Shown here: positions 42,297 through 64,000 of the stretch, piece after piece
Numbering within the stretch: position 1 is the first letter of the stretch
Layout: each line of letters begins with the position of its first letter
IMG/VR virus record: IMGVR_UViG_3300025892_000008
DNA: 64,000 nucleotides
Reading direction: 5' to 3' (one strand)
Source: a virus
Lineage: Duplodnaviria; Caudoviricetes
Program-made: the position numbers and the translations under genes
The notes under the pieces: generated by a model
What the model was told of the DNA's origin: nothing
The model's input: only the letters and a program-made list of their open reading frames with translations
Databases searched by the model: none

Positions 42297-42323
42297 CCAC
42301 AAAGGTGGTTAAATACGTATATA

Positions 42324-43385
42324 ATGACTCAGCAAATTTCCAAAGTAACCACAGTACATCTTGAACTCACGGACAAGTGCCAGGCTCAATGCCCTATGTG
42401 TGCTAGGAATTATCATGGTGGTCCAACAAGACCCTTTATCAAGAATGGCGATATGAGCATTGATGATTTTAAAAAATGGTTTCCGAAATCATTCCTTGGA
42501 CAATTACAAAATTTTTATAGTTGTGGCAACTACGGTGATCCGGCATTTGCACGTGATTGTTTGGAAATCTATTCCTATGTAAGAGAATGCAATCCTAATA
42601 CTAGATTGGCACTACACACAAATGGCGGAATGCGCAACCCGGAATGGTGGGCTAAATTAGCCAAGGTGATAGGAACAGTATCATATAGCACGGTTGTGTT
42701 TGCTGTAGACGGATTCAAAGGCAAACATGAACTTTATAGAAGAAACACGAACTTTGATAAAGTTATAGAAAATATGAAAGCGTATATAGATGCTGGAGGC
42801 GAAGCAAGAGTTGATAGTTTAGTATTCAAACATAATGAGGATGAAACCGAAGAACTAAAAAGTTATCTTCTTGCCCTCGGAGTGAAGGAAGTTAATTTTA
42901 TAAGCACTACTAGATTTTACGAAATGAAAAAATTTGAAGTGCTTGATCAAAATTTAAATACTGAATATTACCTGGAACCAGCACAAAAGAAAGAATTTAT
43001 AAAACACCCAAACGCAGAGCTTGTTAAATTACTTGATGAGAATTACAGAAAGGATGTGTTTAGATCAGCAAAAATATCACCTAGGTGTGTAAACGAAGAC
43101 GCAATATATGTTGACCCGTACGGAAACATAAATCCGTGCTGTTATATTGGTAGCGACTATCTGGAAGAACCTATTGAGGAAACACTGCCGATTCACACTC
43201 TTAGAAATCAGAGCGTGTTGAATACAAGGGCAGTATTAGATGATATCGGACATTACACATGTCAGTCAGGCATACTAGGATCAGATGGATATCTTTTTAC
43301 AGGGTTGGACAAGTATTGGCATGGTGAAGACAAATGCATGACCTGTGTTAAGGCATGTTCAAATGCAATAGTGGAGCGCAAATGA
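42324..43385 (+). CDS. Radical SAM protein with C-terminal SPASM/twitch-like Cys cluster
   Basis: CQAQCPMC, GNYGDP, YVDPYGNINPCC. Confidence 0.88.
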   Translation: MTQQISKVTTVHLELTDKCQAQCPMCARNYHGGPTRPFIKNGDMSIDDFKKWFPKSFLGQLQNFYSCGNYGDPAFARDCLEIYSYVRECNPNTRLALHTNGGMRNPEWWAKLAKVIGTVSYSTVVFAVDGFKGKHELYRRNTNFDKVIENMKAYIDAGGEARVDSLVFKHNEDETEELKSYLLALGVKEVNFISTTRFYEMKKFEVLDQNLNTEYYLEPAQKKEFIKHPNAELVKLLDENYRKDVFRSAKISPRCVNEDAIYVDPYGNINPCCYIGSDYLEEPIEETLPIHTLRNQSVLNTRAVLDDIGHYTCQSGILGSDGYLFTGLDKYWHGEDKCMTCVKACSNAIVERK

Positions 43386-44368
43386 GTTTTACTCTAATAC
43401 CCTTTGACAATATAGTTAAGTTTGGTCAGTCCACTATGATTGAACGTCCTTTGTTTAATGTTAGTTGGATACTGGGTAGATTTTGTAATTACAAGTGTTC
43501 CTATTGTTGGCCATATGCCAATACCGATACACCTGATCATCAAGACTTTGAAGTATACACAAACGCAATTGATGAAATAAAACGCCAAGCGAGAGAAAAC
43601 GGATTTACTGAATTTCATTTTAGTTTTAGTGGTGGAGAACCAACAGCATATAAAAAGTTTGGTGATCTAGTTGAGTACTATGCTAACGACAATGAGGCTA
43701 AGTATCAAAGCATACACCTTACAACGAATTTAAGTCCGGGTGAAAAATGGTGGGCAAGATTTATAAACAACACCAGCCACTTGACACGTCGTAGTATCAC
43801 TGCAAGTTATCATGCAGAGTTTGCAAATGAACAAGACTTTGGAGATAGATGTTTACAACTCATAGAAGGAGGAGTATTTGTTACAATTAATCAAGTTATG
43901 GTTCCTGAATACTTTGAAGAATATTATGAACGTTGCAGTAGATTCGCAGACAAAGGAATTAACGTCACTCTTAAACCGCAGTCCGATCCTACCGCGTCTA
44001 GAATAGTAGACGGTTATACTGATGAACAAATTGACAAGTTACAAACAGGCTTTCCACAGAATTGGAATGGCGAGCAAATTATGCAAATGTATCTAGAAGA
44101 TGCTAAAGGTAATGATTACGGATTGGATCAAGCAGAAAGAATGAATGCATTTAACTTTAATAAGTTTAAAGATTGGACATGCGCAGCAGGCTATCAAAGT
44201 TGCGTTATAAGAGGGGTGGAAGTTAAAAGAGCATATAGTTGTGCGGAAGAGCCTTTAGGCACGCTTACAGAGGGTTTTACGCTGTTTAAAGCACCATCTA
44301 AATGCATTACTAGCACTTGTGTAAGCAGTGCAGACAGTAAAATACCAAAATGGAAAGAACATGAATAA
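43382..44368 (+). CDS. Radical SAM protein
   Basis: CNYKCSYC, SGGEPT, C-terminal Cys cluster. Confidence 0.88.
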   Translation: MSFTLIPFDNIVKFGQSTMIERPLFNVSWILGRFCNYKCSYCWPYANTDTPDHQDFEVYTNAIDEIKRQARENGFTEFHFSFSGGEPTAYKKFGDLVEYYANDNEAKYQSIHLTTNLSPGEKWWARFINNTSHLTRRSITASYHAEFANEQDFGDRCLQLIEGGVFVTINQVMVPEYFEEYYERCSRFADKGINVTLKPQSDPTASRIVDGYTDEQIDKLQTGFPQNWNGEQIMQMYLEDAKGNDYGLDQAERMNAFNFNKFKDWTCAAGYQSCVIRGVEVKRAYSCAEEPLGTLTEGFTLFKAPSKCITSTCVSSADSKIPKWKEHE

Positions 44369-45098
44369 GTTTGGAATATTAGGATATGGATATGTTGGCA
44401 AGGCAACGCACAAAGGTCTGCTAAAGGATGCCAAGGCAATTGTGTATGATACAATGTTTGATGTTGACAAGAGCATTATATACGCTGCCGACACGGTGTT
44501 TATCTGTATTCCTACTAATACGGAGCAGGACATTGACATCATAATTGATGAAATAACTTACCTACAACTAAAAAACCCCAAGGTATCTATTATCATTAGA
44601 AGCACACTACCACTAGGGTCTTGCGAAAGGATACAGAAAGCAGTTGGACCTATAATATACATTCCAGAATTCCTAAGAGAAAGATACTGGGACACAGACT
44701 GCTTAAAGCGACCTCTGGTTGTGGGACACGATAAGTTAAAACTCCCCACTTGGTTATTGGATGAAGAAATACACGAGTGTACTACAAAGGAAGCAGAACT
44801 TGTGAAAATGTTTTCTAACAATTTTGCAGTAATGAGAATAGCCTTTGCAAACGTGTTCTATGATCTCTCAGAAAGTGTGGGTGCAGATTACGATAACGTA
44901 TTAAGTATGTGGAAACAGGTTCAGCAGAATCAGTCATACATGGAAGTTCCGGGACATGACGGAACGAGAGGCTTTGGCGGCAAGTGCTTGCCTAAGGACC
45001 TAGACTTTCTAATCGAAACACTAGAAAAGCATAACATTAAACAGGAATGGTTTAAACACATAAGGGAACTGAATAAGTCATGGACAAAAAAGTCTTAG
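44361..45098 (+). CDS. UDP-glucose/GDP-mannose dehydrogenase-like
   Basis: GYGYVG, FICIPT, IRSTLP.G, PEFLRE, K..SN, GFGGKCLPKD. Confidence 0.88.
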   Translation: MNKFGILGYGYVGKATHKGLLKDAKAIVYDTMFDVDKSIIYAADTVFICIPTNTEQDIDIIIDEITYLQLKNPKVSIIIRSTLPLGSCERIQKAVGPIIYIPEFLRERYWDTDCLKRPLVVGHDKLKLPTWLLDEEIHECTTKEAELVKMFSNNFAVMRIAFANVFYDLSESVGADYDNVLSMWKQVQQNQSYMEVPGHDGTRGFGGKCLPKDLDFLIETLEKHNIKQEWFKHIRELNKSWTKKS

Positions 45099-45955
45099 TA
45101 ACAGGTGCCGCAGGATTGATAGGCAGGGAGTTGTGCAAACAACTCAAGGACAAGTTCTATGTGATTGGTGTTGACAACAATTTTAGATACGAAAATTATA
45201 AGCCCGACTGCAACGAATTTATCAGCGAAAGCATATCGTCTTATCTAAGCAACACTAATAACGATTTTGATTATGTGTTTCACATGGGGAACATTAATGG
45301 TACTAAGTATTTTTACGAAATACCCAACAGACTTGCAGAAAACAACGTAATTTGTGATTTTGCTGTTTTCGATTTTGTAAAAGAAAATCCTGATTGTAAA
45401 TTAATATATGCGAGCAGCAGCGAAGTGGTAGCAGGCTCGGAAGAATTTCCAACACCTGAACTAACAGACATTACCATAAAGGATATACACAATCCAAGAT
45501 GGAGTTACCGATTGCCAAAGATACTAGGCGAAAACTTTTTGATGAATAGTGATCTAAATTTTCTTATAATAAGATTCTTTAACGCATTTGGTGCTGATAC
45601 AGGCAGTGGACATTTTGTAAGAGATATACTGGACAAGATTGAGAGTGGAGATCATACCTTGATAGGAGCAGATGAAACACGTTCATTCTGTCGTGTGGAA
45701 GATTCTGTTGATGCAATAGTAAACATTTTTAAACTGGCAGGGCAACAGGTAGTTAACATTGGAAGCGATGAAGAAATAACGGTATTAGAAGCAGCAAATA
45801 TAATTGCAGCACATAAGAACAAAAGTATCGAATGGAACTGTGTTGCTGGTAAGCAAGGTAGCGTTAAGAGACGAAAGCCTGATCTTACTCTTTTAAGAAA
45901 ATACTATCCTAAATTTAATCCTACAAAGTTTGCTGACGCAATACAAGATTTATAG
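45080..45955 (+). CDS. NAD-dependent epimerase/dehydratase
   Basis: TGAAGLIG, YASSSEV, Y...K, RFFNAFG. Confidence 0.85.
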   Translation: MDKKVLVTGAAGLIGRELCKQLKDKFYVIGVDNNFRYENYKPDCNEFISESISSYLSNTNNDFDYVFHMGNINGTKYFYEIPNRLAENNVICDFAVFDFVKENPDCKLIYASSSEVVAGSEEFPTPELTDITIKDIHNPRWSYRLPKILGENFLMNSDLNFLIIRFFNAFGADTGSGHFVRDILDKIESGDHTLIGADETRSFCRVEDSVDAIVNIFKLAGQQVVNIGSDEEITVLEAANIIAAHKNKSIEWNCVAGKQGSVKRRKPDLTLLRKYYPKFNPTKFADAIQDL

Positions 45956-46810
45956 TTGTAGTATTTTAATTTTTTTAATTTTTGATTTTTCAGGAAGTGT
46001 AATTTTATTTTCCCATTTACACAAACGACATTGCTCTTGAGGTTCTAATCTTGTCTTTATCCAAGTTTCAAATTCTTCTGCACTACACCCAAGATCTTGT
46101 TTTGCAATGTCAGCAAACGGATCTTCTATTTGAAATTTTCTTGATAACTGAGGAAGTATTGCCTGTTGATGACAGCGATAAAATCTACCATCTACTAGAT
46201 ACATACATTGTATAGCAGGACACTTAGAATGTTGATCATCTTTATCTCTAAGTTTATCCCAACTTAATTTATTACCTTTCTTCACAACAGCAGGGTTTTC
46301 GTAAAACTGCCATGCTTCTGTAATTTCACCTCTTTCAATTCCGTCAACAACAAGTTTATAATGCCACTCACCATCTTCGTGTCTAGTATCTTGGAATCGC
46401 TCGCAGGACACATCTGTCCACCTTTTGTTGACCCATGACATAACTGTGTCGAGGTCTTCTTTAGAATGAGCTGATATTTCTATTTTCCAATCACGCTCTA
46501 TCCATTCAGGATACAATTCGTCAAATTTGTCTAAATCTCTTCCATTAGTGACTACCCACTTTTTAGCATTAGGCCACATGCTTTCCAAGTATGCCATCCA
46601 TTCTCCTAGTGCAGGATTAGATGTAGGTTCTCCGCCTATAATAAAAACTTCTTCGAAGTCAACTTTATTCTGTAGGCCTTTTAATTTTTCCTTAGATGTA
46701 TCTGGCTTAAAATGATTGCCCCAATTAAGATGATTAAACGTACAACAACTGTCACACGCCAAGGTACAGGTGTGAGTAATATAAACACTTAATTCAGGAA
46801 GAAGCAACAT
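45950..46810 (-). CDS. Radical SAM protein
   Basis: CTLACDSC, IGGEPT; start refined to ATG 46810, 5 nt after TATAAATA. Confidence 0.85.
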   Translation of the reverse strand: MLLLPELSVYITHTCTLACDSCCTFNHLNWGNHFKPDTSKEKLKGLQNKVDFEEVFIIGGEPTSNPALGEWMAYLESMWPNAKKWVVTNGRDLDKFDELYPEWIERDWKIEISAHSKEDLDTVMSWVNKRWTDVSCERFQDTRHEDGEWHYKLVVDGIERGEITEAWQFYENPAVVKKGNKLSWDKLRDKDDQHSKCPAIQCMYLVDGRFYRCHQQAILPQLSRKFQIEDPFADIAKQDLGCSAEEFETWIKTRLEPQEQCRLCKWENKITLPEKSKIKKIKILQL

Positions 46811-46837
46811 ACTTCTATTTATAGCATATATATACAT

Positions 46838-47440
46838 ATGAAAGTAGAACTTGAAGATGTAGCATTTTGGATGGATGCAATTCGCAATAGCGATGATAGA
46901 TACCGCACGCTGGAAAGTTTTTGGAAAGGCCAAATCAACAGTAAAGTTTGGTTAGTAGAAGCATTAGAAGAACTAAACATTAATAGTCCTCAAACAATTG
47001 CTATACATGGAGGCTGGAATGGTTTATTGGCAAGTTTACTTTTCAACAGCAACTTAAATATACAACATATTACAAGTGTAGACATTGATCCTAAATGTAA
47101 AGAAACAGCAATAACAGTAAACAAGCGTCAGGAAATGCAAGGACGTTTCACAGCAGAAACAGCAGACATGTGTACTTACACAGAATTTGCAGATATTGTA
47201 ATCAATACAAGTTGTGAACATATTACGCAGGAGCAGTACAACGAATGGCTTGAACGACAACAAAACTCGCTTATTGTATTACAAAGCAATAACTATTTTG
47301 AATTACAAGAGCATGTTAGATGTGCTAACGATTTAAATGAATTTATAAGTCAAAGTAATATAAAACCGTTTTTTAAAGGAACACTTGAAACACCTAAATA
47401 TACAAGATATATGATAATAGGGAAAAAACAAATTGGCTGA
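46838..47440 (+). CDS. Class I SAM-dependent methyltransferase-like
   Basis: IHGGWNG..A, SVDIDP, ADM, VINTSCEH. Confidence 0.7.
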   Translation: MKVELEDVAFWMDAIRNSDDRYRTLESFWKGQINSKVWLVEALEELNINSPQTIAIHGGWNGLLASLLFNSNLNIQHITSVDIDPKCKETAITVNKRQEMQGRFTAETADMCTYTEFADIVINTSCEHITQEQYNEWLERQQNSLIVLQSNNYFELQEHVRCANDLNEFISQSNIKPFFKGTLETPKYTRYMIIGKKQIG

Positions 47441-48815
47441 ACTAGACAAATATAAAAAAGCAATAGCAGATGCTGCTGGTACAGAAACATTTTGTGTCTT
47501 ACCATGGATACATTTCGCTACAAGGCCCAACGGTGATATGCGTCTGTGCTGTTCAGCAAACGCCAGCGGCGCAGGTGAGGACCATGAAGTAGGTTTGGTA
47601 AAAATGGAAAACGGCAAGCCTGCAAACTTTGGTAGGGAAACACCGATGGAAGCATGGAATAACGATTACATGAAAAGTGTAAGGACGACTATGCTTGATG
47701 GCAAAATACCTGCAAGTTGTAGAAAATGCTTTGAGGAAGAGTCTAAAGGAGTTGCAAGTAAACGTGTTTGGGAAAGTTATACTTGGATGGAAGATGGTGT
47801 TGATATACCTGAACTTATAAGACAAACAAAAGAAGATGGCACAGTTCCTGAAAATTTAAAATATCTAGACTTACGTTTAGGACATACATGTAATATTAAA
47901 TGTGTCATGTGTTCACCACACGATAGTAGCAAGTGGGTTGCCGATCATAAAAAATTAATTCCAGTTTTACAAGATCCTGAAGTTAAAAGACAAATGCAAT
48001 GGGATAGAAAAGAGTTCAATAACAAATGGCATGAGAAAGATACATTCTGGGAAGAAATGAATGCACAGATCCCTAACTTAAAACAGGTATACTTTGCAGG
48101 TGGCGAGCCGTTAATGATTAGAGAACACAAAAAATTTATTGAAGAAATTATTAGACAAGGATATCAAGACAAAATACTGTTACGTTATAACAGTAACGGA
48201 TTGCTAGTTGATGAAGATTTAATAGAATTATGGAGCAAGTTTAAGAAGGTCAAGTTTGCAGTGAGCATGGATGCTAGTCATGGACGTGATGAATATATAC
48301 GTTATCCTACAAACTTTGAAACTGTAGAAAAAACTTTGCATATGCTTGATAACACACCTGACAACATACAAACAAGTTTAGCAACAGCAATACAGATATT
48401 CAACATAAAACACTTGCCTGATTTTATGAAGTGGAAACTTGAAAGCGGATTTAAAAAACTAAATGCAGGAACAGTTCCAGGCGGCATACAAATGGGCGGT
48501 GGCCTAGTTAATATGCACCTGTTGTATATTCCAACATTCCTTAGTATACAAATACTACCTGAAGAAGATAAGCAAGAAGTTAAAGAACGCTTCATGGACT
48601 TTAAAGATTGGCTATGGAATAACTATAGACAAGATGACGAATATTGGAAACATAATCCATATGGGTGGAAACGTTGGGAAGCAGTTCTTAATCACATGAA
48701 TGCACAAGACAACAGTCACCTATTACCAGGCTTTAAAGAATATACAAACAAACTTGATGCTATACGTGGACTGTCAGCAGCCAAAGTATTTCCAGAGTTA
48801 GCACACTTACTGTGA
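47433..48815 (+). CDS. Twitch-domain radical SAM protein
   Basis: N-terminal FCVLPW...NGD.RLCC; CNIKCVMC; AGGEP; TTG start. Confidence 0.88.
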   Translation: MAELDKYKKAIADAAGTETFCVLPWIHFATRPNGDMRLCCSANASGAGEDHEVGLVKMENGKPANFGRETPMEAWNNDYMKSVRTTMLDGKIPASCRKCFEEESKGVASKRVWESYTWMEDGVDIPELIRQTKEDGTVPENLKYLDLRLGHTCNIKCVMCSPHDSSKWVADHKKLIPVLQDPEVKRQMQWDRKEFNNKWHEKDTFWEEMNAQIPNLKQVYFAGGEPLMIREHKKFIEEIIRQGYQDKILLRYNSNGLLVDEDLIELWSKFKKVKFAVSMDASHGRDEYIRYPTNFETVEKTLHMLDNTPDNIQTSLATAIQIFNIKHLPDFMKWKLESGFKKLNAGTVPGGIQMGGGLVNMHLLYIPTFLSIQILPEEDKQEVKERFMDFKDWLWNNYRQDDEYWKHNPYGWKRWEAVLNHMNAQDNSHLLPGFKEYTNKLDAIRGLSAAKVFPELAHLL

Positions 48816-49777
48816 TTAAACAAGTAATAAATTCGCAAAATCCTAAAACACTTCGTATTGAATATATGATTGGCAATACTTGTAATCACAAGTGTTGGTA
48901 TTGTTTTAAAGGCTCAAATGAAGGTGAGTTTAGATGGACTGACAATTTTGATGCTACTACTAAAAACTTTTTCCATCTATTAGATCATTATAAAAAATAC
49001 GGCAAAGAAAGATTTGAAATACACATTGTAGGCGGTGAACCTACACTATGGCCTGAATTAGGTAAGTTTACAAAACTTCTTAAAGAAAATTATAATTCTT
49101 GGATTAGTATTAGTACTAATGGTTCTCGTACATCAAGGTGGTGGGAACAGTACGGAAAATATTTTGATGATGTAATGATTAGTGTACATCATGAATATGC
49201 TGATATAGAACATTTAAAGAAAATATCTGATATAGTTTATAAGCAAGGACCTGTTGTAAATGCAATGGTATTAATGGATCCGTTTGCTTGGGATAAGTGT
49301 ATAGATATAGTAAAGCAATTACGTACAAGTGAATATAGATGGTTTATAAATGCAATGGAAATTATGCACACAACTATTGATTATACAACTGAACAATTAA
49401 AATATATAAGCAAACCAATAAAGAGATATCCTAATCCTTTATGGATATTAAAAAAATTAAAAAACTTAAAACGTAATCCTAAAGTTGTGTTGGATAACGG
49501 CAAAACAAAAACTGTAAATAGAAATTGGATCGGATTAAACAAGCAAACTAATTTCAAAGGTTGGTTATGTAACATTGGTGTAGATAATCTTTATATTGAT
49601 AAAGACGGTAGAGTTACAGGTGCGTGTAGAACAGTACTATTTGAAAATTATAACATTAATGATGTAGATTTTATAGAAAAATTTAATCCAGTAATCAAAC
49701 CTAAGATATGTGATATGGATTTTTGCGGATGTCAACCTGAACAGTTGTTAGATAAGGTTAAAGTAGTTCCTTTGTAA
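48812..49777 (+). CDS. Radical SAM protein
   Basis: CNHKCWYC, VGGEPT, C-terminal C..G...C...C..DFC.C. Confidence 0.88.
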   Translation: MIKQVINSQNPKTLRIEYMIGNTCNHKCWYCFKGSNEGEFRWTDNFDATTKNFFHLLDHYKKYGKERFEIHIVGGEPTLWPELGKFTKLLKENYNSWISISTNGSRTSRWWEQYGKYFDDVMISVHHEYADIEHLKKISDIVYKQGPVVNAMVLMDPFAWDKCIDIVKQLRTSEYRWFINAMEIMHTTIDYTTEQLKYISKPIKRYPNPLWILKKLKNLKRNPKVVLDNGKTKTVNRNWIGLNKQTNFKGWLCNIGVDNLYIDKDGRVTGACRTVLFENYNINDVDFIEKFNPVIKPKICDMDFCGCQPEQLLDKVKVVPL

Positions 49778-50663
49778 GAGGGATGTCAGCGGCACAAGTA
49801 CACCACTTACGAGTACAAGTTATCCAATCTTCCGGTTGTTCAAAACTACCGTCATAAATGTTACCTATACTTCCGCCAACTCTACAAGTAGCACGATGAA
49901 CTTCACCGTCCCAATTAATCATTAGGCTTTCTATACCTGCACTACACTTCCAACCTTCAAATTGATTTAGATGTTGTTTAATAACATCGTTGGCATGCAT
50001 TTCTTCTTTATCGTCAATGATGACATTAGGCTTTGCTGTTGATGTTTGATTAAGTATCCATTCTAAATCTTTGCCTTCATATTTTAAATCATTAAACACG
50101 TCATGGTCACCTTCTGTCCATCGTATTCGTCTTACAACATAAGGAATACTGTGTCCGTCAAACATTGTAGCACACTCTTTTACTCTATCCATAAATTTAT
50201 GATGTGCCATTAAGTTAACTTGAAATGGCTTTTTTGTATATGCACCTTCATTTATCTGAGAAAACATTAACACAGTTTCTGCACATCTTCTCCAATGTTC
50301 ATTATCTTCTACATGCAAACTAAACACAATATGATTTACATTAAGGTCACTGTAGTACTGTGCTGTCCGTGTTCCGTTAGTAGTTACATTGATCCAATCA
50401 ACACGCTGACTTGCATGATCAACTAGTTCTGTAAACTGTGGGTGTACACACGGTTCACCGCCTGTAAAACTTACACGAATTGATTTATCAATTTCAGCAA
50501 GTGCATCAACTGCATCTATTAATACTTTAATATGTGTGTGTGGGCTAGTGTTATCGTGTATTTCTGCTGGACAATAACTACAATCAAAGTTACAACGTTT
50601 GCCAAGGTTCCATTCAACATGTATACTATTTTGATGTGGCCATTTGCTTATTACTTTATACAT
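49758..50663 (-). CDS. Radical SAM protein
   Basis: CNFDCSYC, TGGEPC, C-terminal Cys cluster. Confidence 0.88.
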   Translation of the reverse strand: MYKVISKWPHQNSIHVEWNLGKRCNFDCSYCPAEIHDNTSPHTHIKVLIDAVDALAEIDKSIRVSFTGGEPCVHPQFTELVDHASQRVDWINVTTNGTRTAQYYSDLNVNHIVFSLHVEDNEHWRRCAETVLMFSQINEGAYTKKPFQVNLMAHHKFMDRVKECATMFDGHSIPYVVRRIRWTEGDHDVFNDLKYEGKDLEWILNQTSTAKPNVIIDDKEEMHANDVIKQHLNQFEGWKCSAGIESLMINWDGEVHRATCRVGGSIGNIYDGSFEQPEDWITCTRKWCTCAADIPLTKELL

Positions 50664-52594: not shown

Positions 52595-52599
52595 GTAGA

Positions 52600-53911: not shown

Positions 53912-53919
53912 GCTCATAT

Positions 53920-54264: not shown

Positions 54265-54287
54265 AAGTATATTTATTATATGGAGTA

Positions 54288-56444: not shown

Positions 56445-56968
56445 AAAATTTAGGAGTATGTGATACTATTGACTGGGATAGTGTAATAGAACAATGTGCA
56501 AGTGTTGATCCAGAGTTTGTAGGGCCAAGCCACAAACGTGGAGATACTATTCCTGGACTAGATCCTATATTAGATATGTGGGTGGAAGCAGGATATAAAA
56601 CTGTACATGAAGGCGGCACAGCAGGATGGGATATGTTTATTCCGGGAAAGCAGTTTGATGAAAGTGTAGTTGATGAATGGAATACATACTATGGATTAGA
56701 ATGTAATAATGTTTGGATCAGTAGAGTATGGCCTGGACGATTTGCTCCTATACACTGGGACGTACATGATGACGAAGTTAATTTACCTGACTGTCCAAGA
56801 TATCATTGTCACATAGGAAAACCACAATGGGGACATATTTTTATTGCAGATGAAGAATTATTTTATAACCAGCCACAGGGCACAACTTGGCAATGGACTG
56901 ATAGAAAGATATGGCATGCAGGAACAAACTGTGGAACACAACCTAAATATATATGGAATGCATGGTAA
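56441..56968 (+). CDS. 2OG-Fe(II)/cupin oxygenase, tandem paralogue
   Basis: PG.FAPIHWD; G..WQW....WHAG.N.G..PK. Confidence 0.7.
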   Translation: MKNLGVCDTIDWDSVIEQCASVDPEFVGPSHKRGDTIPGLDPILDMWVEAGYKTVHEGGTAGWDMFIPGKQFDESVVDEWNTYYGLECNNVWISRVWPGRFAPIHWDVHDDEVNLPDCPRYHCHIGKPQWGHIFIADEELFYNQPQGTTWQWTDRKIWHAGTNCGTQPKYIWNAW

Positions 56969-57999
56969 TGGAAACAGGAATAGTTACTTGGTTTAATGAC
57001 GCAAAAGGTTTTGGATTTGTAAAAACTGATAGGGGCGATGACATCATCTGCGAAAAATGGCATATGATAACCGAACCAAGAACACTAAAAGAAAGACAGA
57101 AAGTTTCCTTTAACAGATTCCCTTACAAGGGCAAGGAACATGCAGGCGAAATATCAGTACTAGAAGATGATGCAGTTCCAGCACCAGTATTAAATATGTC
57201 ACAGGGCAGAGTATACTGCGAGGAACCACTGATAGTAGTATTTGATAATGCTGTTCCGGAAGATGTGTGTGATGAAATAATGTCTAAGCACATTGCTGAT
57301 GGAATGAATCCAGATAGCGGCAAGCAGAGTCGACAGGAAAGTTATACACAAGTTACTGAAGAAGTAGAACAGCGTGGCATTAGTTTAGGAATGGATCCAC
57401 ATCACTATAACATCATTGCAAACGCAATTGTGGAGAATTGTGGATTTCCACACTCGCATATTGAAGCAATTGATATCTATAATTATGATAAAGGTAGATA
57501 CTTGGATCTGCATCACGACTATCCTTACTTTCCGGACAAGATTAACTATTACTCTCATGGAAGAAATGATAGGGTAGGCACAGGAATACTATACCTTAAT
57601 GATGATTATGAGGGCGGCAGCACATACTTTCCAAAACTGGATATTGATGTGAAGCCAAAGAAAGGTAGCATGCTATACTTCAAGCAGTGCTATAATGAAG
57701 CCGTTAACTGGAGTACCATACACGAAAGCAAGGTAATTACTAACGGAACGAAATGGATAGCCAGTTGCTTTTTTAGTGAAAGAGAAAGGATTGGCTTTAC
57801 AGACAGGGAGAATTTTGTGCCGGAGAAAAATCCAACATTTGATGAACCATTCTATGTTAAGAAGTTTATGGCTATACAGAGAGATAACGTTCGCCTATAT
57901 CGCAAACTCAAGAATCTAGAAGAAAGCGAATTAAAAAAAGCAATTGAGGAAACACTAGGCAAGGACTTTTTTGATAAACTAGACGATCTACTAAAATGA
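56968..57999 (+). CDS. Cold-shock domain fused to prolyl-4-hydroxylase-like 2OG-Fe(II) dioxygenase
   Basis: GIVTWFNDAKGFGFV (CSD RNP1); HHD...GILYLND.YEGG.T.FP...P.KG..LYF...IHES..I..G.KW. Confidence 0.8.
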   Translation: METGIVTWFNDAKGFGFVKTDRGDDIICEKWHMITEPRTLKERQKVSFNRFPYKGKEHAGEISVLEDDAVPAPVLNMSQGRVYCEEPLIVVFDNAVPEDVCDEIMSKHIADGMNPDSGKQSRQESYTQVTEEVEQRGISLGMDPHHYNIIANAIVENCGFPHSHIEAIDIYNYDKGRYLDLHHDYPYFPDKINYYSHGRNDRVGTGILYLNDDYEGGSTYFPKLDIDVKPKKGSMLYFKQCYNEAVNWSTIHESKVITNGTKWIASCFFSERERIGFTDRENFVPEKNPTFDEPFYVKKFMAIQRDNVRLYRKLKNLEESELKKAIEETLGKDFFDKLDDLLK

Positions 58000-58445
58000 A
58001 ATTTTATATATTAGGCAGCAACAGAGGATTAGGATTACATCTACGCAACGAGTTTGATTGTGTTAGTTTTGATCGGCCTTATAATCTTGCCAAGGACATA
58101 GACACCATAGTTGAAAAGATTGAATCAGACAGTGTTGTCATACTAAACGCACACGCAGAAGGTAAGCAGATAAAATATGTGGAAGCACTAAAGGATAGAT
58201 GTAGGTTAGTTGTGTGCGGAAGCATAGCATCACAGAAGAAAGATTTTAGCATGCCAATATACAGCCAACAGAAACAGAAGTTAGAAGAGTATGTATTGGA
58301 ACAATCCCTACACAGCAAAATGCCAATGCTGTATCTTAGGTTGACTAGCAGTAGTTATAGGAACTATAATTTAATTACTAACACTATTAGATTCTGGTTA
58401 GACAATCCAGACTTTACATTTGCAGGATATAACATAAATGATTAA
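57996..58445 (+). CDS. Truncated/degenerate SDR oxidoreductase
   Basis: ILGSNRGLG, ILNA, Y...K. Confidence 0.55.
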   Translation: MKFYILGSNRGLGLHLRNEFDCVSFDRPYNLAKDIDTIVEKIESDSVVILNAHAEGKQIKYVEALKDRCRLVVCGSIASQKKDFSMPIYSQQKQKLEEYVLEQSLHSKMPMLYLRLTSSSYRNYNLITNTIRFWLDNPDFTFAGYNIND

Positions 58446-59016
58446 TCAGTATAAAGAATTTACATCATGGGTAGATGTTGACAAGTGGAATGGCATTTGT
58501 AGTGAGATCTATAATGCAAAGATTCTCAACGAATCTAGTAACAGAATGACCAAAGAAAAATGGATTCTTGCTGCGTTAAAATTAAGCAATCACAAGGATA
58601 ATATTGACTGGGTTGATTGTTATGATTATGATGTGGTATTCCAAGAATGGAATTTAGGAAAAGTTGAAATTAAGACCGGTAATCATCCCATGTTTAGCAA
58701 GGTGCAGTGCAAACCAAAAGACATTGTTAAACTTAAATTAAAAAATATTTACGAAAGTTCCTATGATAGAGAAACGTTGGATAAGGACTTTGATCACTTG
58801 ATGATTGTTAATCTTGCACCTGTGTTCTGTGTAGCGTTCTGTGATTATGCGACTGCAAATAAACATTTGGTTCAGTTAAAAGACGGATTTCTAACAAAGA
58901 TACCTATGGATGAACTAACAATAGTGTATAAAGAATCTAATAAATTTACACAGAGTAAGATCAATTTTGATCCAAAAAGTGTTATAATAGGACAGTTGGA
59001 AGAAGCAGGTTACTAG
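58438..59016 (+). CDS. Hypothetical protein, possible PD-(D/E)xK fold
   Basis: YDV......KVEIKT; weak. Confidence 0.45.
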   Translation: MINQYKEFTSWVDVDKWNGICSEIYNAKILNESSNRMTKEKWILAALKLSNHKDNIDWVDCYDYDVVFQEWNLGKVEIKTGNHPMFSKVQCKPKDIVKLKLKNIYESSYDRETLDKDFDHLMIVNLAPVFCVAFCDYATANKHLVQLKDGFLTKIPMDELTIVYKESNKFTQSKINFDPKSVIIGQLEEAGY

Positions 59017-59017
59017 C

Positions 59018-59620
59018 ATGAGTGAAAACAAAATTATTATAACAGGACATACTAAAGGTATTGGTAAAGCAATATTTGATAAATTTACAGAAGTAAGTTG
59101 CCACAAAATTATAGGTATGAGTCGTAGCAATGGCTACGACATAGAAAAAGACTTTGATAAAATAGTTGAAGAGGCAACTGGTGCAGACTTTTTTGTTAAT
59201 AATGCATATAGAGACGGACAGCAGTTAAAACTGTTTCACGCACTAAAAGACAAAGTGAACATGATGGTTGTTATGGGCAGTGTAAGTAGACACTATCCTG
59301 AACTTATTCCTACAGACTATGTACATGATAAACAAGCACTTGCAGAAGCATGCAGGCTAGAAAGTATTAATCCAAACGGCATTCCTATACTGCACCTAGA
59401 TCTTAGTTTTATAGAAGGCACTGAAATACAAGGCGACGATACTACAGCGTTCTTAAGCGATTACAACACACCATTAAATGATATTGTTGATACAATTATG
59501 TTTTGGGCGCAGAAACCTACTATAAGGCAAATTGAATTTAGGTGGAAACTAACTGAACACGTTAGAAAAGAATTAGAACGTATTAATCCTAACTTAGACC
59601 CATCTAGGGTACAATTCTAA
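59018..59620 (+). CDS. SDR-family oxidoreductase
   Basis: ITGHTKGIG, SRSNGYDI, FVNNA, Y...K. Confidence 0.75.
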   Translation: MSENKIIITGHTKGIGKAIFDKFTEVSCHKIIGMSRSNGYDIEKDFDKIVEEATGADFFVNNAYRDGQQLKLFHALKDKVNMMVVMGSVSRHYPELIPTDYVHDKQALAEACRLESINPNGIPILHLDLSFIEGTEIQGDDTTAFLSDYNTPLNDIVDTIMFWAQKPTIRQIEFRWKLTEHVRKELERINPNLDPSRVQF

Positions 59621-60154
59621 ATTAGCATAAAATTTATCAGGGTGTATCTCCCATACAGTTTGATCTGTATGCCTATAATGCACTTCTTTAATTTTACTTA
59701 CTACACCTACCTTAGCAAGTGTAGGAAAATATATTGAGTGTACTAGTCTTTGGCTTCCTTCTTTACTTTTGTTTGAAGTTGCATACACTCTGCCTTTACC
59801 TTTTGTCCACTCTAAACATGCAGGAAGTAAAAACTGATCAGTAAGATTTTGATGTTCAGCACAAAGTCTATGTGCTTTTACTAATCCGTTGTGCGGTCTT
59901 GCATCACCAAACGTACATACCCTTGTAAGTATTCTATAAGAGTTAGGACCCATAACATCATCAAATGAATGTGCGGCAACACTTCCTATAGCAGTATCGT
60001 TTTCGTATAGTATCCATACATTCCATTCACGCTCATTACGAAAACAGTCAATCATTACTTTCTGACTAGCGTTGTTTACAAAACCTCTGCCTTCAGCCTT
60101 AGCATAAAACTCAGACAAGTCTAAGTTTTCATTCCATTCAACTAACTTATGCAT
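59594..60154 (-). CDS. GNAT-like acyltransferase candidate
   Basis: WILY....IG.VAAH...YRI..R.C pattern; weak. Confidence 0.4.
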   Translation of the reverse strand: MHKLVEWNENLDLSEFYAKAEGRGFVNNASQKVMIDCFRNEREWNVWILYENDTAIGSVAAHSFDDVMGPNSYRILTRVCTFGDARPHNGLVKAHRLCAEHQNLTDQFLLPACLEWTKGKGRVYATSNKSKEGSQRLVHSIYFPTLAKVGVVSKIKEVHYRHTDQTVWEIHPDKFYANLELYPRWV

Positions 60155-60839
60155 AGATTGCTTTTGCCTTTTCCATAACTTCATCAGGGAAGTTTGTTTT
60201 AAAACTATCAAATGCTAGTAATTGTATTTGAACATGGTCTGTAGGAGTATTAACATCGATACCTGCCTCTGTCATTTTAGGCAACAAGTCTGCTTGTCTA
60301 TCTTCACTGATGTGACTCATTACACTTTTTAAACTTATTGGTAAATCTGTGTCTTTATAGCAGAAAAAATAGTTAATACTTTTTAGTGTTCCGTCTACAA
60401 CAAAATAACTGCTAGGGTGCATACTGTATTTGTACAACCCCAGGTCCTTGTGTGCTTGAATAATATCAAGCATTTGCTCTTCCCAATTATCAACAACACT
60501 GTAATCTTTACCTTGACAGCCTGCAAGTTCCCACATGTCAGGTCCGTCAATTTTTAAAAACAACTTTCTGTTAACAAAGTCAATGTCTTGTATTTCTGGC
60601 ACATGCTGTGGGTACTTCATTTCCATTTGTTGTATAAAGTTAATCTCACGTAACCATTTCGATTCCATTAGTTCAGAATCCACTACTTGATTATGCCCGC
60701 CATGATATTGTTCATCATTATAGTACCATTGGCAAAATGTCTTTTTATCCTTACTAATCAAACTAGTATATATTAGATTATTTCGGCATTGACCTTTACC
60801 AGGAACTGTGTTATAATAGTATTCAAAGTTGTTACTCAT
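60147..60839 (-). CDS. Kinase-fold-like protein (paralogue 2)
   Basis: Shares LIS.D.KTFC, E..F, PEI.DID, YK..M.P blocks with 55202-55879. Confidence 0.5.
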   Translation of the reverse strand: MSNNFEYYYNTVPGKGQCRNNLIYTSLISKDKKTFCQWYYNDEQYHGGHNQVVDSELMESKWLREINFIQQMEMKYPQHVPEIQDIDFVNRKLFLKIDGPDMWELAGCQGKDYSVVDNWEEQMLDIIQAHKDLGLYKYSMHPSSYFVVDGTLKSINYFFCYKDTDLPISLKSVMSHISEDRQADLLPKMTEAGIDVNTPTDHVQIQLLAFDSFKTNFPDEVMEKAKAIYA

Positions 60840-60844
60840 AGCAC

Positions 60845-60860
60845 TATTTAACGGTAAATA
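60845..60860. promoter_or_regulatory. Symmetric bidirectional TAAATA element
   Basis: CAT, 5 nt, TATTTA, 4 nt, TAAATA, 5 nt, ATG in a 26-nt gap. Confidence 0.75.
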
Positions 60861-60865
60861 TCTAC

Positions 60866-61681
60866 ATGATTAGAGGAATTGGCGGAAAGCCTTACATTAA
60901 CTTAGATTCACACCTAGACATTTCGTCTTTCAAAGATCTGCATCCTGAGATTGCTAGAGGTTTTGCATTAGCAAGAGATTATGCAAAAGAAGGTACTTGG
61001 ATGGCCCCTGGCTTTGAATGGAAGGATAGCAGTTATATTCTTAATTGGAAACCAATTTACAAAGCATGGAACGAGTATCAAGCATTAGATGATAATGATC
61101 CTATTAAAATTGAAGGTAACAAAATATTACCTACAGACTTTAGCGATTACAAACAGCGTAATATATTCACACGCTATTTAAAAGCAACAATGGGTGCTAA
61201 TGATCCATACATTTACTACTTCCTTTGGAATGAAGGTGACTGGAATGAACGTAACGCTGAAAGACAAAAGACAGAAGAAGCAAGTTATTTTCCAGGTGTA
61301 GTTGAGTGGGTAGAAAATTTACAAACACAAGGTATTATTGATCGGATAGGTAGAGTTATTTTCTTTCACTGCGATCATAATGGCAGAGCATTTGAACATA
61401 GAGACCTAGATGCAGATAACGGAGTACATGATGATAAGCAATATAGTCCGCACAATAATGAATTCATACATATACGCTATCGCACAAAGAGAGGATTTTA
61501 TATTTGGGATCCAGAGAGCGAGAACAAACATTACTTAAACTGTAACGCTGCTTTTTGGAATGACCAAGACTGGCACGGTGGCGAAAACAGTGTAGAAGTT
61601 GAATACGGTTTACGCATTGACTGCAAATTTACAAACGACTTTAGAAAGAGGCTAGGGATTGATCATCTCAAAACATATTAG
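60866..61681 (+). CDS. 2OG-Fe(II)/cupin-like oxygenase
   Basis: GRVIFF...EHRD; FWNDQDWHGG; GLRID. Confidence 0.6.
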   Translation: MIRGIGGKPYINLDSHLDISSFKDLHPEIARGFALARDYAKEGTWMAPGFEWKDSSYILNWKPIYKAWNEYQALDDNDPIKIEGNKILPTDFSDYKQRNIFTRYLKATMGANDPYIYYFLWNEGDWNERNAERQKTEEASYFPGVVEWVENLQTQGIIDRIGRVIFFHCDHNGRAFEHRDLDADNGVHDDKQYSPHNNEFIHIRYRTKRGFYIWDPESENKHYLNCNAAFWNDQDWHGGENSVEVEYGLRIDCKFTNDFRKRLGIDHLKTY

Positions 61682-61685
61682 AAAC

Positions 61686-62186
61686 ATGGAGTGGATAGGT
61701 AACTTTAATAAGGACCTGAGTAAAGACCTTAACGACCTTGTGATGATTACAGAAGGACAAGCTCGTCCTGGTGACTGGAAACCTGTAAACGAAGTTGAAA
61801 AAGCACTTTGGGAAAAAGGAAAATCCGCACTAGATTTTAGTAAGACAATGTGGTATGTATACGAACAACAAGACCTACAAGTAGATTTAAAATTTCCTTG
61901 GACAGAAGGTAAATGCCATTGGTGGATTACTAAACTGCTACCTGGGCAAATGATGCCTATGCATACGGATCCACATACTCACGATGACCAAAACTGTAAA
62001 CGTTACTGGGTACCTTTACAAGATTATGTTCCTGGGCACGTTTTTATATACAATAATGTAATGGTATCAGATTACAAAAGAGGTGATGTGTTTCAATACT
62101 CACATTCGCAAGACGAACACGGTGCTGCTAACCTTTCTTTTGTTCCAAGAATAGTATTGCAAGTGACTGAATATCCATGCCATTAA
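61686..62186 (+). CDS. 2OG-Fe(II)/cupin oxygenase
   Basis: PGQMMPMHTD; GDVF.Y....EHGAAN....RIVLQ. Confidence 0.72.
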   Translation: MEWIGNFNKDLSKDLNDLVMITEGQARPGDWKPVNEVEKALWEKGKSALDFSKTMWYVYEQQDLQVDLKFPWTEGKCHWWITKLLPGQMMPMHTDPHTHDDQNCKRYWVPLQDYVPGHVFIYNNVMVSDYKRGDVFQYSHSQDEHGAANLSFVPRIVLQVTEYPCH

Positions 62187-62809
62187 CAATAGGATTTTAT
62201 GGTGATAGTTTCTGCTGCGAAACATCTAACCCACACAGCATTGCAAAAGGTTATGATACCTATATTGAAAAACTAAAAACACACCACGATGCAAAAATTA
62301 CCAACCTAGGGTATGGCGGAAGCTCAGTGTGGGACGTTATATTAAAACAGTTTGATGAAAGTGATGTACCTGATATTTGTATTTTTTGCTGGACAGACTA
62401 TAATAGGTTGTATGATACTAAACTTAGAAACATTACAAAAGGCAGCATTGAAAACAAACAATGGAAGGATTATTCTTTTAAAGATTTATTCTTTCATAAA
62501 AAAATTAATGCAGCAGCAGAATATTTTAAATATTTACACGACTACGAAAAAGCAGGAGTTGAACAAAAAGCAGCACTGCAATACTTTGACCTAAATGTAT
62601 TAAGCAAAGTAAAAAGTAAAATAATCCATATGTGGAGTTTTAAAAAAACATATAATTGGAAGCATGGAGTTGAAATAGAAACTCCTTTATATAATTTTGT
62701 TAATAAAGATGCAAACGGATTTGAAACATGGGCAGCGAACCATATAGGCGGCGATAAAAATAATCAAGATATTTTTGAGTTAATTAATGCCCAGCATCGG
62801 CTTTCATAG
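62177..62809 (+). CDS. SGNH/GDSL hydrolase-like protein
   Basis: FYGDSF, NLGYGGSS, C-terminal NH. Confidence 0.6.
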   Translation: MPLTIGFYGDSFCCETSNPHSIAKGYDTYIEKLKTHHDAKITNLGYGGSSVWDVILKQFDESDVPDICIFCWTDYNRLYDTKLRNITKGSIENKQWKDYSFKDLFFHKKINAAAEYFKYLHDYEKAGVEQKAALQYFDLNVLSKVKSKIIHMWSFKKTYNWKHGVEIETPLYNFVNKDANGFETWAANHIGGDKNNQDIFELINAQHRLS

Positions 62810-63878
62810 TAAAGTTAATTTTCACATCAGAAACCGCATCAAGTTTATTAAGTAATTTGTTTTGTGCTGTTAGCCTTTGTTCTAAACTATACTTTGCTGC
62901 TGTACCTTCATAACAGAATATGTTAGATAAGTTGACTAATGTTTTTAGGTTAACCTCTAAGTAGTTTATAAGGTTCTGTTCTTCAAGTAAATTAGTATAC
63001 ACAAACAAATAATCTATGCCGTCCTTACGTGGGCATGTTTCTTTCCAGTGGTCTAGTGCTTTTTTATTATAGTCATAAAATACTACACGCCCTTTATCTA
63101 TTAAGTCTAAGTACAATGTCCCACTAGCAGGTAGCACAACTTGTTCATACTTTTCTGTAATACCAGTTGTCCATTCTGTGTTGTCAGTATGTACGAATTC
63201 TTCCTCGCAGTATTTTAATTTGTGATCAATGTGTTCTTTCTGTTTTAAAAAGTCCTCTGTGCTTTCAGGATAGTAATGTCGTTTGTTATTACGAATACTA
63301 TCGTCAAATACAACAACAGGCAAGTTCCATTCAAATGCTACTTTTAACAGATTCCAACCATGACATCTATTAGCATACGTAACTTGTTTGTATCCTTTTG
63401 CTACAGTTATAGGTGTATAGTCGTCGTGTATGTTGTTTATGCTGCGTTTAGGTTCTAGTTGGGTATGTACTATGTCTTTTTCTAAAGCGCCTACTGTAGG
63501 GCGTTTAAATGCGTTATAGGTATCCATATTAATTACATAACATTGATGATGCAGTTCATAATAAGCATCGTGCATAGTACGATCTAATACATGTCCTGCT
63601 AGAAAAAAATCTTGTTCTACTAGTTTATCTAGTGCTTCAAAGAATGCAAAGCCGTTAATAAATTCTGTGCCAGGACTCATTACTACTGCATGTTTATAAC
63701 CTTTTAGATTTTGTAATAGTTGATCTTCGTCTTTACCTATGTTTACTGTGTAGCCTTTAGTACGCAAATTGGATATTGTAAAGTCAACAATATTTCTAAT
63801 AGTCTGTTTAATGCTATCGTTTTCATATGTATCTATATCATCTACGATACAAAATGCTAGTTTCTTATTCAAGTCCAT
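62784..63878 (-). CDS. Hypothetical protein
   Basis: 364-aa ORF; TAAATA 6 nt upstream of ATG. Confidence 0.65.
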   Translation of the reverse strand: MDLNKKLAFCIVDDIDTYENDSIKQTIRNIVDFTISNLRTKGYTVNIGKDEDQLLQNLKGYKHAVVMSPGTEFINGFAFFEALDKLVEQDFFLAGHVLDRTMHDAYYELHHQCYVINMDTYNAFKRPTVGALEKDIVHTQLEPKRSINNIHDDYTPITVAKGYKQVTYANRCHGWNLLKVAFEWNLPVVVFDDSIRNNKRHYYPESTEDFLKQKEHIDHKLKYCEEEFVHTDNTEWTTGITEKYEQVVLPASGTLYLDLIDKGRVVFYDYNKKALDHWKETCPRKDGIDYLFVYTNLLEEQNLINYLEVNLKTLVNLSNIFCYEGTAAKYSLEQRLTAQNKLLNKLDAVSDVKINFTMKADAGH

Positions 63879-63884
63879 GGCAAA

Positions 63885-63901
63885 TATTTATGGCATAAAT
63901 A
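63885..63901. promoter_or_regulatory. Bidirectional TAAATA element
   Basis: TATTTA (63885-63890), 5 nt, TAAATA (63896-63901), between divergent ATGs at 63878 and 63907. Confidence 0.72.
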
Positions 63902-63906
63902 TTGGT

Positions 63907-64000
63907 ATGAACATAGAATTGATAGATTTAAAGCAATATAAAGACTTTTCAAAGTTAACACCTTTTATTGAAAGTTTCAAAGATTTTGACATAAATGCAG
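63907..64000 (+). CDS. Partial ORF at the window end
   Basis: MNIELIDLKQYKDFSKLTPFIESFKDFDINA..., open to the end. Confidence 0.6.
   Translation, partial: MNIELIDLKQYKDFSKLTPFIESFKDFDINA

Follow-up and report, generated by a model that had tools for sequence, protein, structure and literature searches.

The 64,000-nt stretch of IMG/VR virus record IMGVR_UViG_3300025892_000008 (the window) raises the question of what a surface-ocean virus gains from an island of radical S-adenosylmethionine (rSAM) enzymes, 2-oxoglutarate (2OG) oxygenases and sugar enzymes that begins at position 42,324 and runs past the end of the window. With ten rSAM genes and about as many oxygenases over its full length, the island represents an extreme outlay on chemistry that is sensitive to oxygen and costly in iron. 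A first-pass annotation of the DNA had proposed that it encodes one late-expressed and undescribed pathway for modification of the virion. The idea of one pathway was not borne out. The island is divided into about 11 short units in which a conserved rSAM core lies amid cassettes that vary among relatives, and thus it may be considered modular and not a single fixed pathway. With a confidence that falls somewhat short of even, the island is read as a late-expressed system that tailors sugars or glycans for a surface, with a slight preference for the virion over the host envelope.

Genes are named below by their first coordinate. Seven rSAM genes had been claimed for the window and all seven stand, since each presents a CxxxCxxC motif and matches PF04055 with 30.7–54.1 bits against a Pfam cut-off of 29.5 bits. 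Extra cysteine clusters, which had been noted for most of these genes, are found as further Cys motifs in all seven. Two of them, 47433 (47433–48815, plus strand; 394 bits) and 50656 (50656–51924, minus strand; 328 bits), belong to NF033640, a family of rSAM enzymes with an N-terminal twitch domain and a curated cut-off of 170 bits; their matches span model positions 1–2 to 397 of 398. No other island gene is as conserved as the first. Relatives of this first gene are encoded on 261 IMG/VR fragments, the best 80 of which (85–94% identity) are the phage loci to which all counts out of 80 refer; the second N-twitch gene is present in 80 of 80 at a median identity of 82%.

The Cys-rich N-terminal twitch domain keeps C9, C27, C28, C66 and C69 throughout the family alignment and is matched by BtrN's twitch domain (E = 3e-6). 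BtrN, a dehydrogenase, and DesII are rSAM enzymes of antibiotic pathways that carry auxiliary clusters of the twitch type and have sugar-type substrates. The twitch domains of the island point to small-molecule substrates. To our knowledge NF033640 has no characterized member, and membership describes an architecture and not a reaction. Searches of the literature on the twitch family in phages and on Bdellovibrio rSAM clusters found no functional study.

The remaining five rSAM proteins present CxxG...DG...C-type motifs in their C-terminal regions and score 27–44 bits or not at all against NF033640; as a result, they are not considered members. In order, they are encoded by 42324 (42324–43385, plus strand; PF04055 47.2 bits), which ends in a Cys-rich, SPASM/twitch-like tail; 43355 (43355–44368, plus strand; 51.1 bits), found in 76 of 80 loci; 45950 (45950–46810, minus strand; 30.7 bits), part of a rare cassette seen in 5 of 80; 48812 (48812–49777, plus strand; 54.1 bits), with a C-terminal Cys motif; and 49758 (49758–50663, minus strand; 53.4 bits), with a C-terminal twitch/SPASM-like motif and present in 77 of 80. 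The start of 45950 was refined to an ATG that lies 5 nt past a TATAAATA box at 46816–46823. Among PDB sequences, the N-twitch rSAM core best matches TvgB (8vpo, E = 2e-11), followed by CteB and SkfB. TvgB, a peptide cyclopropyl synthase, was considered as a clue to function and set aside, as the match was judged to be generic similarity of the shared core. Weak similarities below threshold connect the island rSAMs to QueE, viperin, MoaA and the lipid enzymes Tes and GDGT-MAS.

A core is readily defined when the phage relatives are compared. Genes 43355, 46838, 47433, 49758 and 50656 are nearly constant in the 80 loci with median identities of 62–88%. Relatives also retain the positions of 42324 and 48812, though the proteins that occupy them are only about 38–39% identical. 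The PP-loop gene 51908 is present in 41 of the loci and the cupin gene 52634 in 34. From these comparisons, the conserved core consists of a methyltransferase, two N-twitch rSAMs and two twitch/SPASM-like rSAMs, often with a PP-loop ATPase. The methyltransferase had been proposed for 46838 (46838–47440, plus strand; 79 of 80 loci), and its class I SAM-dependent fold is backed by structural neighbors with TM scores of 0.7–0.8; its profile retrieved nothing specific from the PDB.

Around this core, exchangeable cassettes contribute an NDP-sugar dehydrogenase, epimerases/dehydratases, 2OG oxygenases, short-chain dehydrogenase/reductase (SDR)-like and kinase-like proteins, and a glycosyltransferase A (GT-A)/methyltransferase fusion. 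Each of the sugar genes 44361, 45080 and 54294, like the rSAM gene 45950, is confined to 5–16 of the 80 loci. Even close strains differ: relative to strains with 91% identity in the flanking DNA, the window carries one more gene, at 58438–59016, and is without an insert of about 560 nt at 56438–56447. Assemblies of public runs contain loose contig ends at 45964, 48449, 53633 and 62998, which suggest that variants with different cassette junctions exist side by side.

Counterparts of the core were found in bacteria. When prokaryotes were scanned by pattern, with each species represented by one genome, 269 N-twitch relatives emerged, and partner counts were made over 77 loci. The best 80 of the 269 are mostly from Bdellovibrionota, several of them located on chromosomes of megabase size; two loci in one genome are common, and up to 7–8 N-twitch paralogues are packed into 20 kb (loci L091–L167, for example L095, L121, L154 and L160). 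By tblastn, the families of 46838, 47433, 42324 and 43355 recur together in many arrays, again mostly in Bdellovibrionota, with identities of 28–42%, 43–48% (cassette copies), 35–38% and 46–52%, respectively; a 42324-like rSAM is present in 26 of the 77 loci. Some bacterial rSAM arrays also hold two or three copies of a PP-loop paralogue. Since the same families are grouped in chromosomal arrays, the phage core is, by sequence, a bacterial-type cassette. Modification of the virion thus survives from the first-pass annotation as one of several possible targets, and not as the evident purpose of genes that turn out not to be phage-specific. The Bdellovibrionota arrays themselves carry no annotation, and no paper on them was found.

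Several independent N-twitch loci are accompanied by sugar genes. In Poseidonocella, an N-twitch rSAM lies near FdtA, a hexose 2,3-dehydratase, an EryCIII-like glycosyltransferase (GT) and a polyketide synthase (PKS). The Bdellovibrio CG22 locus includes GH1 and GT2 along with the envelope genes polysaccharide deacetylase, MltA and YkuD. The gammaproteobacterial metagenome-assembled genome MED685 combines an epimerase, a nucleotidyltransferase and a GFO/IDH-rSAM fusion with 2OG and TauD oxygenases. In the Vibrio phage KVP40, genes 0272–0274 encode a GT4, a small open reading frame (ORF) and an N-twitch rSAM as one unit. Vibrio phage K566 has three annotated rSAM genes in the range 0303–0307, and its record has four tblastn matches to 50656.

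Within the island, sugar genes interrupt the core itself, as 44361 (16 of 80 loci) and 45080 (11 of 80) lie midway through the core cassette in those phage relatives that have them. The protein of 44361 (44361–45098, plus strand; 245 aa) had been called a UDP-sugar dehydrogenase. Its central domain, with the catalytic Cys of the GGKC motif (GGKCLPKD), supports this (PF00984, 68 bits), but the C-terminal nucleotide-sugar domain is absent; TIGR03026 is matched with 98 bits against a cut-off of 190 and the N-terminal Rossmann domain with 24 bits against 27. Despite this truncation, the gene is kept in the 16 loci with about 72% identity, and it may encode a minimal or repurposed dehydrogenase. 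The two epimerase/dehydratases of the earlier account are solid by Pfam. One is the NAD-dependent 45080 (45080–45955, plus strand; PF01370, 91.8 bits), and the other, 54294 (54294–55205, plus strand; PF16363, 140 bits; PF01370, 136 bits), is an NDP-sugar epimerase/4,6-dehydratase that heads the longest unit.

A candidate transferase for the island is predicted from the AlphaFold2 model of 62784 (62784–63878, minus strand; pLDDT = 83), in which an N-terminal GT-A-like fold is followed by a C-terminal class I methyltransferase-like fold. The best structural match is the capsid glycosyltransferase of chlorovirus PBCV-1 (Z = 10.5; with 9% identity, a likeness at the level of the fold), followed by the GT domain of LH3 (Z = 10.2). 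Residues 214–364 match EgtD and NodS with Z of about 9–9.6, and a Foldseek search retrieved GlyE (E = 3e-4).

The surroundings of the island also involve sugars and fibers. Directly to the left, and co-oriented with fiber genes, is a sugar operon (34614–37594, minus strand) that encodes a phosphomannomutase (PMM; 34614–35339, minus strand; PDB phmmer E = 5e-29), a glycosyltransferase (35330–36148, minus strand; phrog_1962, E = 1e-23), the CMP-Kdo synthetase KdsB (36136–36807, minus strand; E = 2e-26) and the Kdo-8-P synthase KdsA (36776–37594, minus strand; E = 2e-77). KdsA and KdsB lead to Kdo, a sugar of the lipopolysaccharide (LPS) inner core. From this gene content, it appears that the phage makes its own CMP-Kdo and mannose-1-P. 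A QueD-like T-fold gene (37554–38003) heads the operon, which sits between fiber-like genes. Fiber and tail-spike PHROG families are found on the left, and the window encodes a fiber protein of 2251 aa along with other fiber-like proteins.

To the right, the island had been expected to continue past the window, and it does. An ENA scaffold (L177/L179), 99.99% identical to window positions 52784–64000, extends it to about 74,400 in window-equivalent numbering, some 10.4 kb past the window, where it abuts a convergent Mtd_N-domain gene that looks like a receptor-binding protein. Of the genes in the continuation, three encode further rSAM enzymes, one of them with a SPASM-type domain at its N terminus, four are AspH-like, one is aminotransferase-like and five are unknowns; the first part of an AspH-like gene of 215 aa (63907–64000, plus strand) is already within the window. 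The complete island is about 32 kb in length with ten rSAM genes and about 11 oxygenase-like genes, and a relative at 91% nucleotide identity has the same content in the continuation. Farther right (L179:12672–19025), the scaffold encodes the Mtd_N-domain protein, two 2OG-FeII_Oxy_5 proteins, an RNA polymerase Rpb6/omega-like protein and an HSP70/DnaK-like protein.

Expression of the island was approached through the hexamer TAAATA, with which most of its transcription units had been said to begin. This is the case for 9 of 11 units. In the window, 62 copies are present, and 24 are sense-oriented and no more than 60 nt upstream of one of the 82 called genes, which is more than for every hexamer of the same composition; within 30 nt the count is 14 against at most 10. 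The full T4 late box TATAAATA was considered as the promoter and rejected, since it occurs only twice against 9.2 expected, and the six-nucleotide core is the real signal. The first island unit (42324–45955) has its box at 42310–42315 (plus strand), 8 nt before the ATG. Short divergent junctions of 26–39 nt hold one TAAATA per strand, back to back, as in the 39-nt junction at 52595–52633, where TAAATA and ATG are separated by 5 nt (minus strand) or 18 nt (plus strand).

The spacing falls into two classes. In the first, the spacer between TAAATA and ATG is exactly 5 nt in nine cases, 6 nt in three and 4 nt in two; examples of TAAATA-N5-ATG are at 46810–46823, 52594–52605, 54264–54275 and 60839–60850 on the minus strand and at 60855–60868, 63896–63909 and 31979–31992 on the plus strand. 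The second has leaders of 18–35 nt with GGAG-type ribosome sites, the giant fiber gene among them. In T4, late transcription starts about 6 nt after the late box, and the box is used, with gp55 and gp33, for structural genes. If the same geometry applies here, a 5-nt spacer would have the message start on or next to its AUG, and we infer that these are leaderless late mRNAs.

In a relative (G001), TAAATA precedes 19 of 44 unit starts compared with 8 of 97 internal genes, and it heads the unit that contains the Gp23 capsid gene as well as units of giant structural genes. The capsid gene has no box in its own upstream 90 nt; the box is three genes upstream, at the head of the unit. From its position ahead of the capsid-gene unit, TAAATA is plausibly a late-type promoter. 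For the late-promoter claim, the core shared with structural units of the relative is a candidate, and the full TATAAATA box, which is not enriched, is not.

The oxygenases are the second numerous class of enzyme in the island, and the seven HxD..H proteins first proposed are all supported as candidates, to differing degrees. The AspH family (PF05118, cut-off 22.6 bits) accounts for 53264 (53264–53917, minus strand; 31.2 bits), whose counterpart in L177 is on record as the same family, and perhaps for the AspH-like cupin 52634 (52634–53302, plus strand), which at 20.5 bits is slightly below the cut-off and a candidate 2OG oxygenase. AspH enzymes hydroxylate Asp and Asn of proteins, and the lipid A hydroxylase LpxO belongs to the same family. 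The tandem cupin paralogues 55872–56444 and 56441–56968 (plus strand) share an invariant PG..HxD..R..G..H, and the family alignment adds a third small member at 61686–62186 (plus strand). Pfam searches of this family, member by member, gave essentially nothing, and its profile matches are weak, to AspH and the small hydroxylase Cpz10.

Two further oxygenases differ from the rest. Gene 56953 (56953–57999, plus strand) encodes a fusion of a cold-shock domain (PF00313, 37 bits) with a 2OG-Fe(II) oxygenase domain (PF13640, 41.6 bits). Since cold-shock domains bind nucleic acids, the sequence suggests a prolyl-hydroxylase-type enzyme directed at RNA, DNA or the ribosome within an otherwise sugar-looking unit, and it warns that the cassettes need not all share one substrate. 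The protein of 60866 (60866–61681, plus strand; TAAATA plus 5 nt before the ATG) is a putative 2OG oxygenase with a double-stranded β-helix fold in its AlphaFold2 model (pLDDT = 72). Foldseek aligned the model with ALKBH5, vCPH, T7H and AspH at probabilities of 0.95–1.0, and H178, D180 and H237 are invariant in its family.

Taken together, the twitch domains, the adjacency of N-twitch genes to sugar and GT genes, the sugar genes in mid-core, the neighboring Kdo and mannose genes and the fiber setting are the grounds on which sugar or glycan tailoring is proposed; substrate class, order of steps, timing and acceptor are all inferred. The starting material would be activated sugars made by the phage, supplied by the neighboring Kdo and mannose genes and by a uronic-acid or 4-keto route within the island. 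Radical chemistry would then rebuild these sugars by C-H oxidation, epimerization, deoxygenation or C-methylation, after which they would be hydroxylated, methylated and perhaps amidated or phosphorylated. The product would be moved late in infection onto a surface acceptor, with fibers or capsid slightly favored over the cell envelope. A more specific form of this proposal is that the cassette shared by the phage and Bdellovibrionota is an undescribed rSAM pathway to a heavily rebuilt sugar or glycolipid head group, which the phage places on fibers or capsid late and from near-leaderless transcripts; taken with all of its parts, this version is considered rather doubtful.

A number of observations weigh against sugar tailoring. 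All specific NCBIfam equivalogs score far below their cut-offs for the island rSAMs, so that no substrate can be assigned from them. Homologs of the phage sugar genes are present in only 2–3 of the 77 bacterial loci. Two Bdellovibrionia loci contain rSAMs, unknowns, a fatty-acid desaturase and an AspH-like gene with no sugar gene, and a Paenibacillus locus contains an acyl carrier protein (ACP), a ketosynthase, an AMP-ligase and GT2; from these contexts a lipid or other small-molecule substrate is possible. The cold-shock fusion of 56953 and the ALKBH5/Tet-like fold matches of 60866 imply that some cassettes may act on nucleic acids or proteins. The sole candidate transferase of the island, 62784, is a weak one at Z of about 10 and 9% identity. 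With respect to late expression, the longest unit (54294–59620) is without TAAATA and has a GGAG ribosome site instead. Four RNA-labeled public runs contain the region as contigs of 5–9 kb with even depth that span divergent junctions; being long, even and continuous across such junctions, they probably derive from DNA and so provide neither start sites nor timing.

Of the other explanations, the one nearest to sugar tailoring of the virion would direct the tailored sugars to the LPS or capsule of the infected cell, either blocking superinfection or sustaining envelope synthesis. Kdo made by KdsA and KdsB belongs to the LPS inner core, the AspH family includes LpxO, and the bacterial arrays are chromosomal and sometimes near GT2, polysaccharide deacetylase, MltA and YkuD. 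A role in LPS has also been favored for the comparable gene cluster of pelagimyophages (PMC7029224). The late-type box that the island has in common with structural operons fits assembly better than early exclusion, however, and neither a flippase, a ligase nor a lipid-carrier gene was seen in the island by Pfam or in the records of its continuation; remodeling of the envelope is thus rated as improbable, if the least so of the alternatives. If the rSAM core instead made a free small molecule (a lipid, a cofactor or an antibiotic-like compound, for example) and the sugar cassettes were its unrelated neighbors in a flexible island, this would suit those bacterial arrays that lie near a fatty-acid desaturase, near ACP/ketosynthase/AMP-ligase sets or near a PKS. 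The mosaic structure of the island, which speaks against one pathway, and the weak similarity to Tes and GDGT-MAS agree with this. Yet the phage island has no transporter, carrier protein or synthase scaffold, and sugar genes are found inside the core cassette at the frequencies given above, which leaves a free product unlikely. About as little can be granted to the modification of virion protein side chains, or of an unrecognized peptide, by rSAM and AspH enzymes in the manner of RiPPs (peptides that are made by the ribosome and modified after translation). It has in its favor that the closest rSAM cores in sequence are peptide maturases (TvgB, CteB, SkfB), that AspH enzymes act on protein Asp and Asn, and that, in combining kinase-like proteins with a methyltransferase and oxygenases, the island is reminiscent of RiPP tailoring sets. 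The maturase similarity is limited to the shared core, while the auxiliary domains are of the twitch type, N-terminal and matched to BtrN. The gaps of the island total less than 450 nt and hold no candidate precursor ORF save a Lys/Ala-rich protein of 64 aa, in agreement with the absence of a precursor gene as first reported, and neither the island nor its continuation yielded a RiPP recognition element (RRE), a leader peptidase or an exporter family.

The last alternative, hypermodification of DNA or nucleotides, turns on 51908 (51908–52594, minus strand), which would be QueC of the 7-deazaguanine pathway with rSAMs and oxygenases modifying the bases further. The gene had been called QueC-like, and its PP-loop (SGGADS) and four-Cys motif (C188, C209, C212 and C215), all invariant in the family alignment, bear this out, as does phrog_1550 (E = 4e-7). 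The similarity fails over the whole length: Pfam QueC is matched with 17 bits against a cut-off of 22 (E = 0.004) and in the C-terminal part only, there is no NCBIfam match, and the family profile retrieves Asn synthetase, ThiI and NAD synthetase from the PDB with no QueC at E up to 1. Its Atlas neighbors are virus-rich families, and its homologs occur in two to three copies within bacterial rSAM arrays, which is a further point against a base pathway. The weak similarities to QueE, viperin and MoaA and the cold-shock fusion of 56953 would fit this explanation; the location among fiber genes and not replication genes, and the presence of thyX, would not. The earlier inference that the products are not base precursors is also supported, as no dNMP hydroxymethylase, base transferase of the DpdA/TGT or aGPT-Pplase kind, DNA base kinase or other recognizable DNA-base enzyme was found by Pfam and PHROGs in 42324–64000 or the continuation. 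DNA hypermodification is therefore regarded as the least probable of the readings, and tailoring of sugars for a surface, with that of the virion slightly favored, is retained as the working interpretation.

Other genes of the island are less readily placed. The two kinase-like proteins that had been listed are the small protein 55202 (55202–55879, plus strand) and its paralogue 60147 (60147–60839, minus strand; TAAATA plus 5 nt before the ATG). A protein-kinase/Bud32-like fold is possible from a weak profile match to the PDB (E = 5e-4), but Pfam kinase families, searched member by member, gave none at E up to 1, and the segment aligned to the catalytic HRD reads YKL or YKLxxYP, so that HRD is not conserved. 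None of the 2670 relatives of 55202 is annotated. Of two proposed SDRs, 57996 (57996–58445, plus strand) is short and is supported at the level of motifs only (GSNRGLG, YSQQK) with no profile match, and 59018 (59018–59620, plus strand) has the motifs TGHTKGIG and YVHDK with a match to adh_short below the cut-off (E = 0.002). The protein of 62177 (62177–62809, plus strand), which had been listed as an SGNH protein, has an N-terminal GDS motif and no family match in Pfam or PHROG. The remainder are proteins of 114 aa (53920–54264, minus strand; start 5 nt past TAAATA), 192 aa (58438–59016, plus strand; the extra gene relative to close strains) and 196 aa (59594–60184, minus strand; listed earlier as a GNAT candidate, with no Pfam or PHROG match). 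Just outside the island, 42029–42223 (minus strand) encodes the 64-aa Lys/Ala-rich protein, with a composition like that of histone H1-like DNA-binding proteins, a TAAATA 27 nt upstream and a GGAG site. Two 429-aa proteins that flank the island were compared and are not paralogues.

The window has a composition of 36% G+C, is 98% coding, and also encodes a ClpA-like ATPase, a clamp loader, an endolysin and ThyX. A near-identity DNA search of both window halves against the phage collection gave no match among deposited phages, and an exact 42-mer from the window end was absent from IMG/VR. The closest protein matches are jumbo phages at about 40–44% identity. On a 159.6-kb IMG/VR contig of a relative, a T4-type Gp23 capsid gene was identified (E = 8e-84), and CheckV considers this contig 44% complete. 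From this capsid gene and completeness, the lineage is predicted to be a T4-like marine jumbo phage with a genome of about 350–360 kb. In the assembly collection, the index lists 73 blocks with the exact protein product of 62784–63878, and the lineage is common in marine samples.

Defining a core with bacterial counterparts turns what had been a vague remark on many rSAM genes into a testable unit. Because the cultured phages KVP40 and K566 carry small versions, genetics, virion glycoproteomics and enzyme assays are feasible. Should the product decorate virions, it would be the first virion glycan built by radical SAM chemistry; should it alter the host envelope, it would bear on superinfection and grazing at sea. 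The assignment of the N-twitch family, the conserved core cassette, the Bdellovibrionota arrays and the TAAATA-N5-ATG architecture appear to be new, and a literature search on these four points found no paper.

Viruses that glycosylate their own virions include the chlorovirus PBCV-1 with A64R, mimivirus with its fibril sugars, CroV with a Kdo region, and glycosylated mycobacteriophages. We know of no rSAM array in any of these systems. The island resembles them in providing its own activated sugars, in the GT-A fold of 62784 (as in PBCV-1) and in the neighboring Kdo genes (as in CroV), with the difference that here the likeness is in genes alone. Compared to BtrN and DesII, the island enzymes share twitch-type clusters and, as in the Poseidonocella locus, NDP-sugar enzymes as neighbors; they differ in that the twitch domain is N-terminal and not C-terminal, and the similarity is limited to the twitch domain and the core. 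Among marine phages, the claim that the system is undescribed does not hold in full, since earlier papers describe both rSAM-rich T4-like phages and host recognition clusters (PMC5332604, PMC7029224). Nishimura et al. (2017) described the T4-like genome TARA_ERS488813_N000010 with 12 rSAM genes (PMC5332604), likewise a T4-like phage from the sea that has unusually many of these enzymes, for which genes of Fe-S supply are discussed. That paper counts the genes and gives no family, cassette, bacterial counterpart or promoter (PMC5332604). Zaragoza-Solas et al. (2020) described fiber-linked host recognition clusters of pelagimyophages with LPS genes, rSAM cassettes and AspH (PMC7029224). Like these clusters in pelagimyophages and cyanomyophages, the present island is a large variable region of a T4-like marine phage amid tail-fiber genes, and together with its left flank it carries LPS-type sugar genes, a GT, rSAM cassettes and AspH-like genes. 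Judged by its variable content, fiber flanks and predicted LPS-type sugar genes, the island corresponds to a host recognition cluster. Unlike the published clusters, it resides in a jumbo phage, its load of ten rSAM genes is far higher, and a conserved rSAM core can be defined within it.

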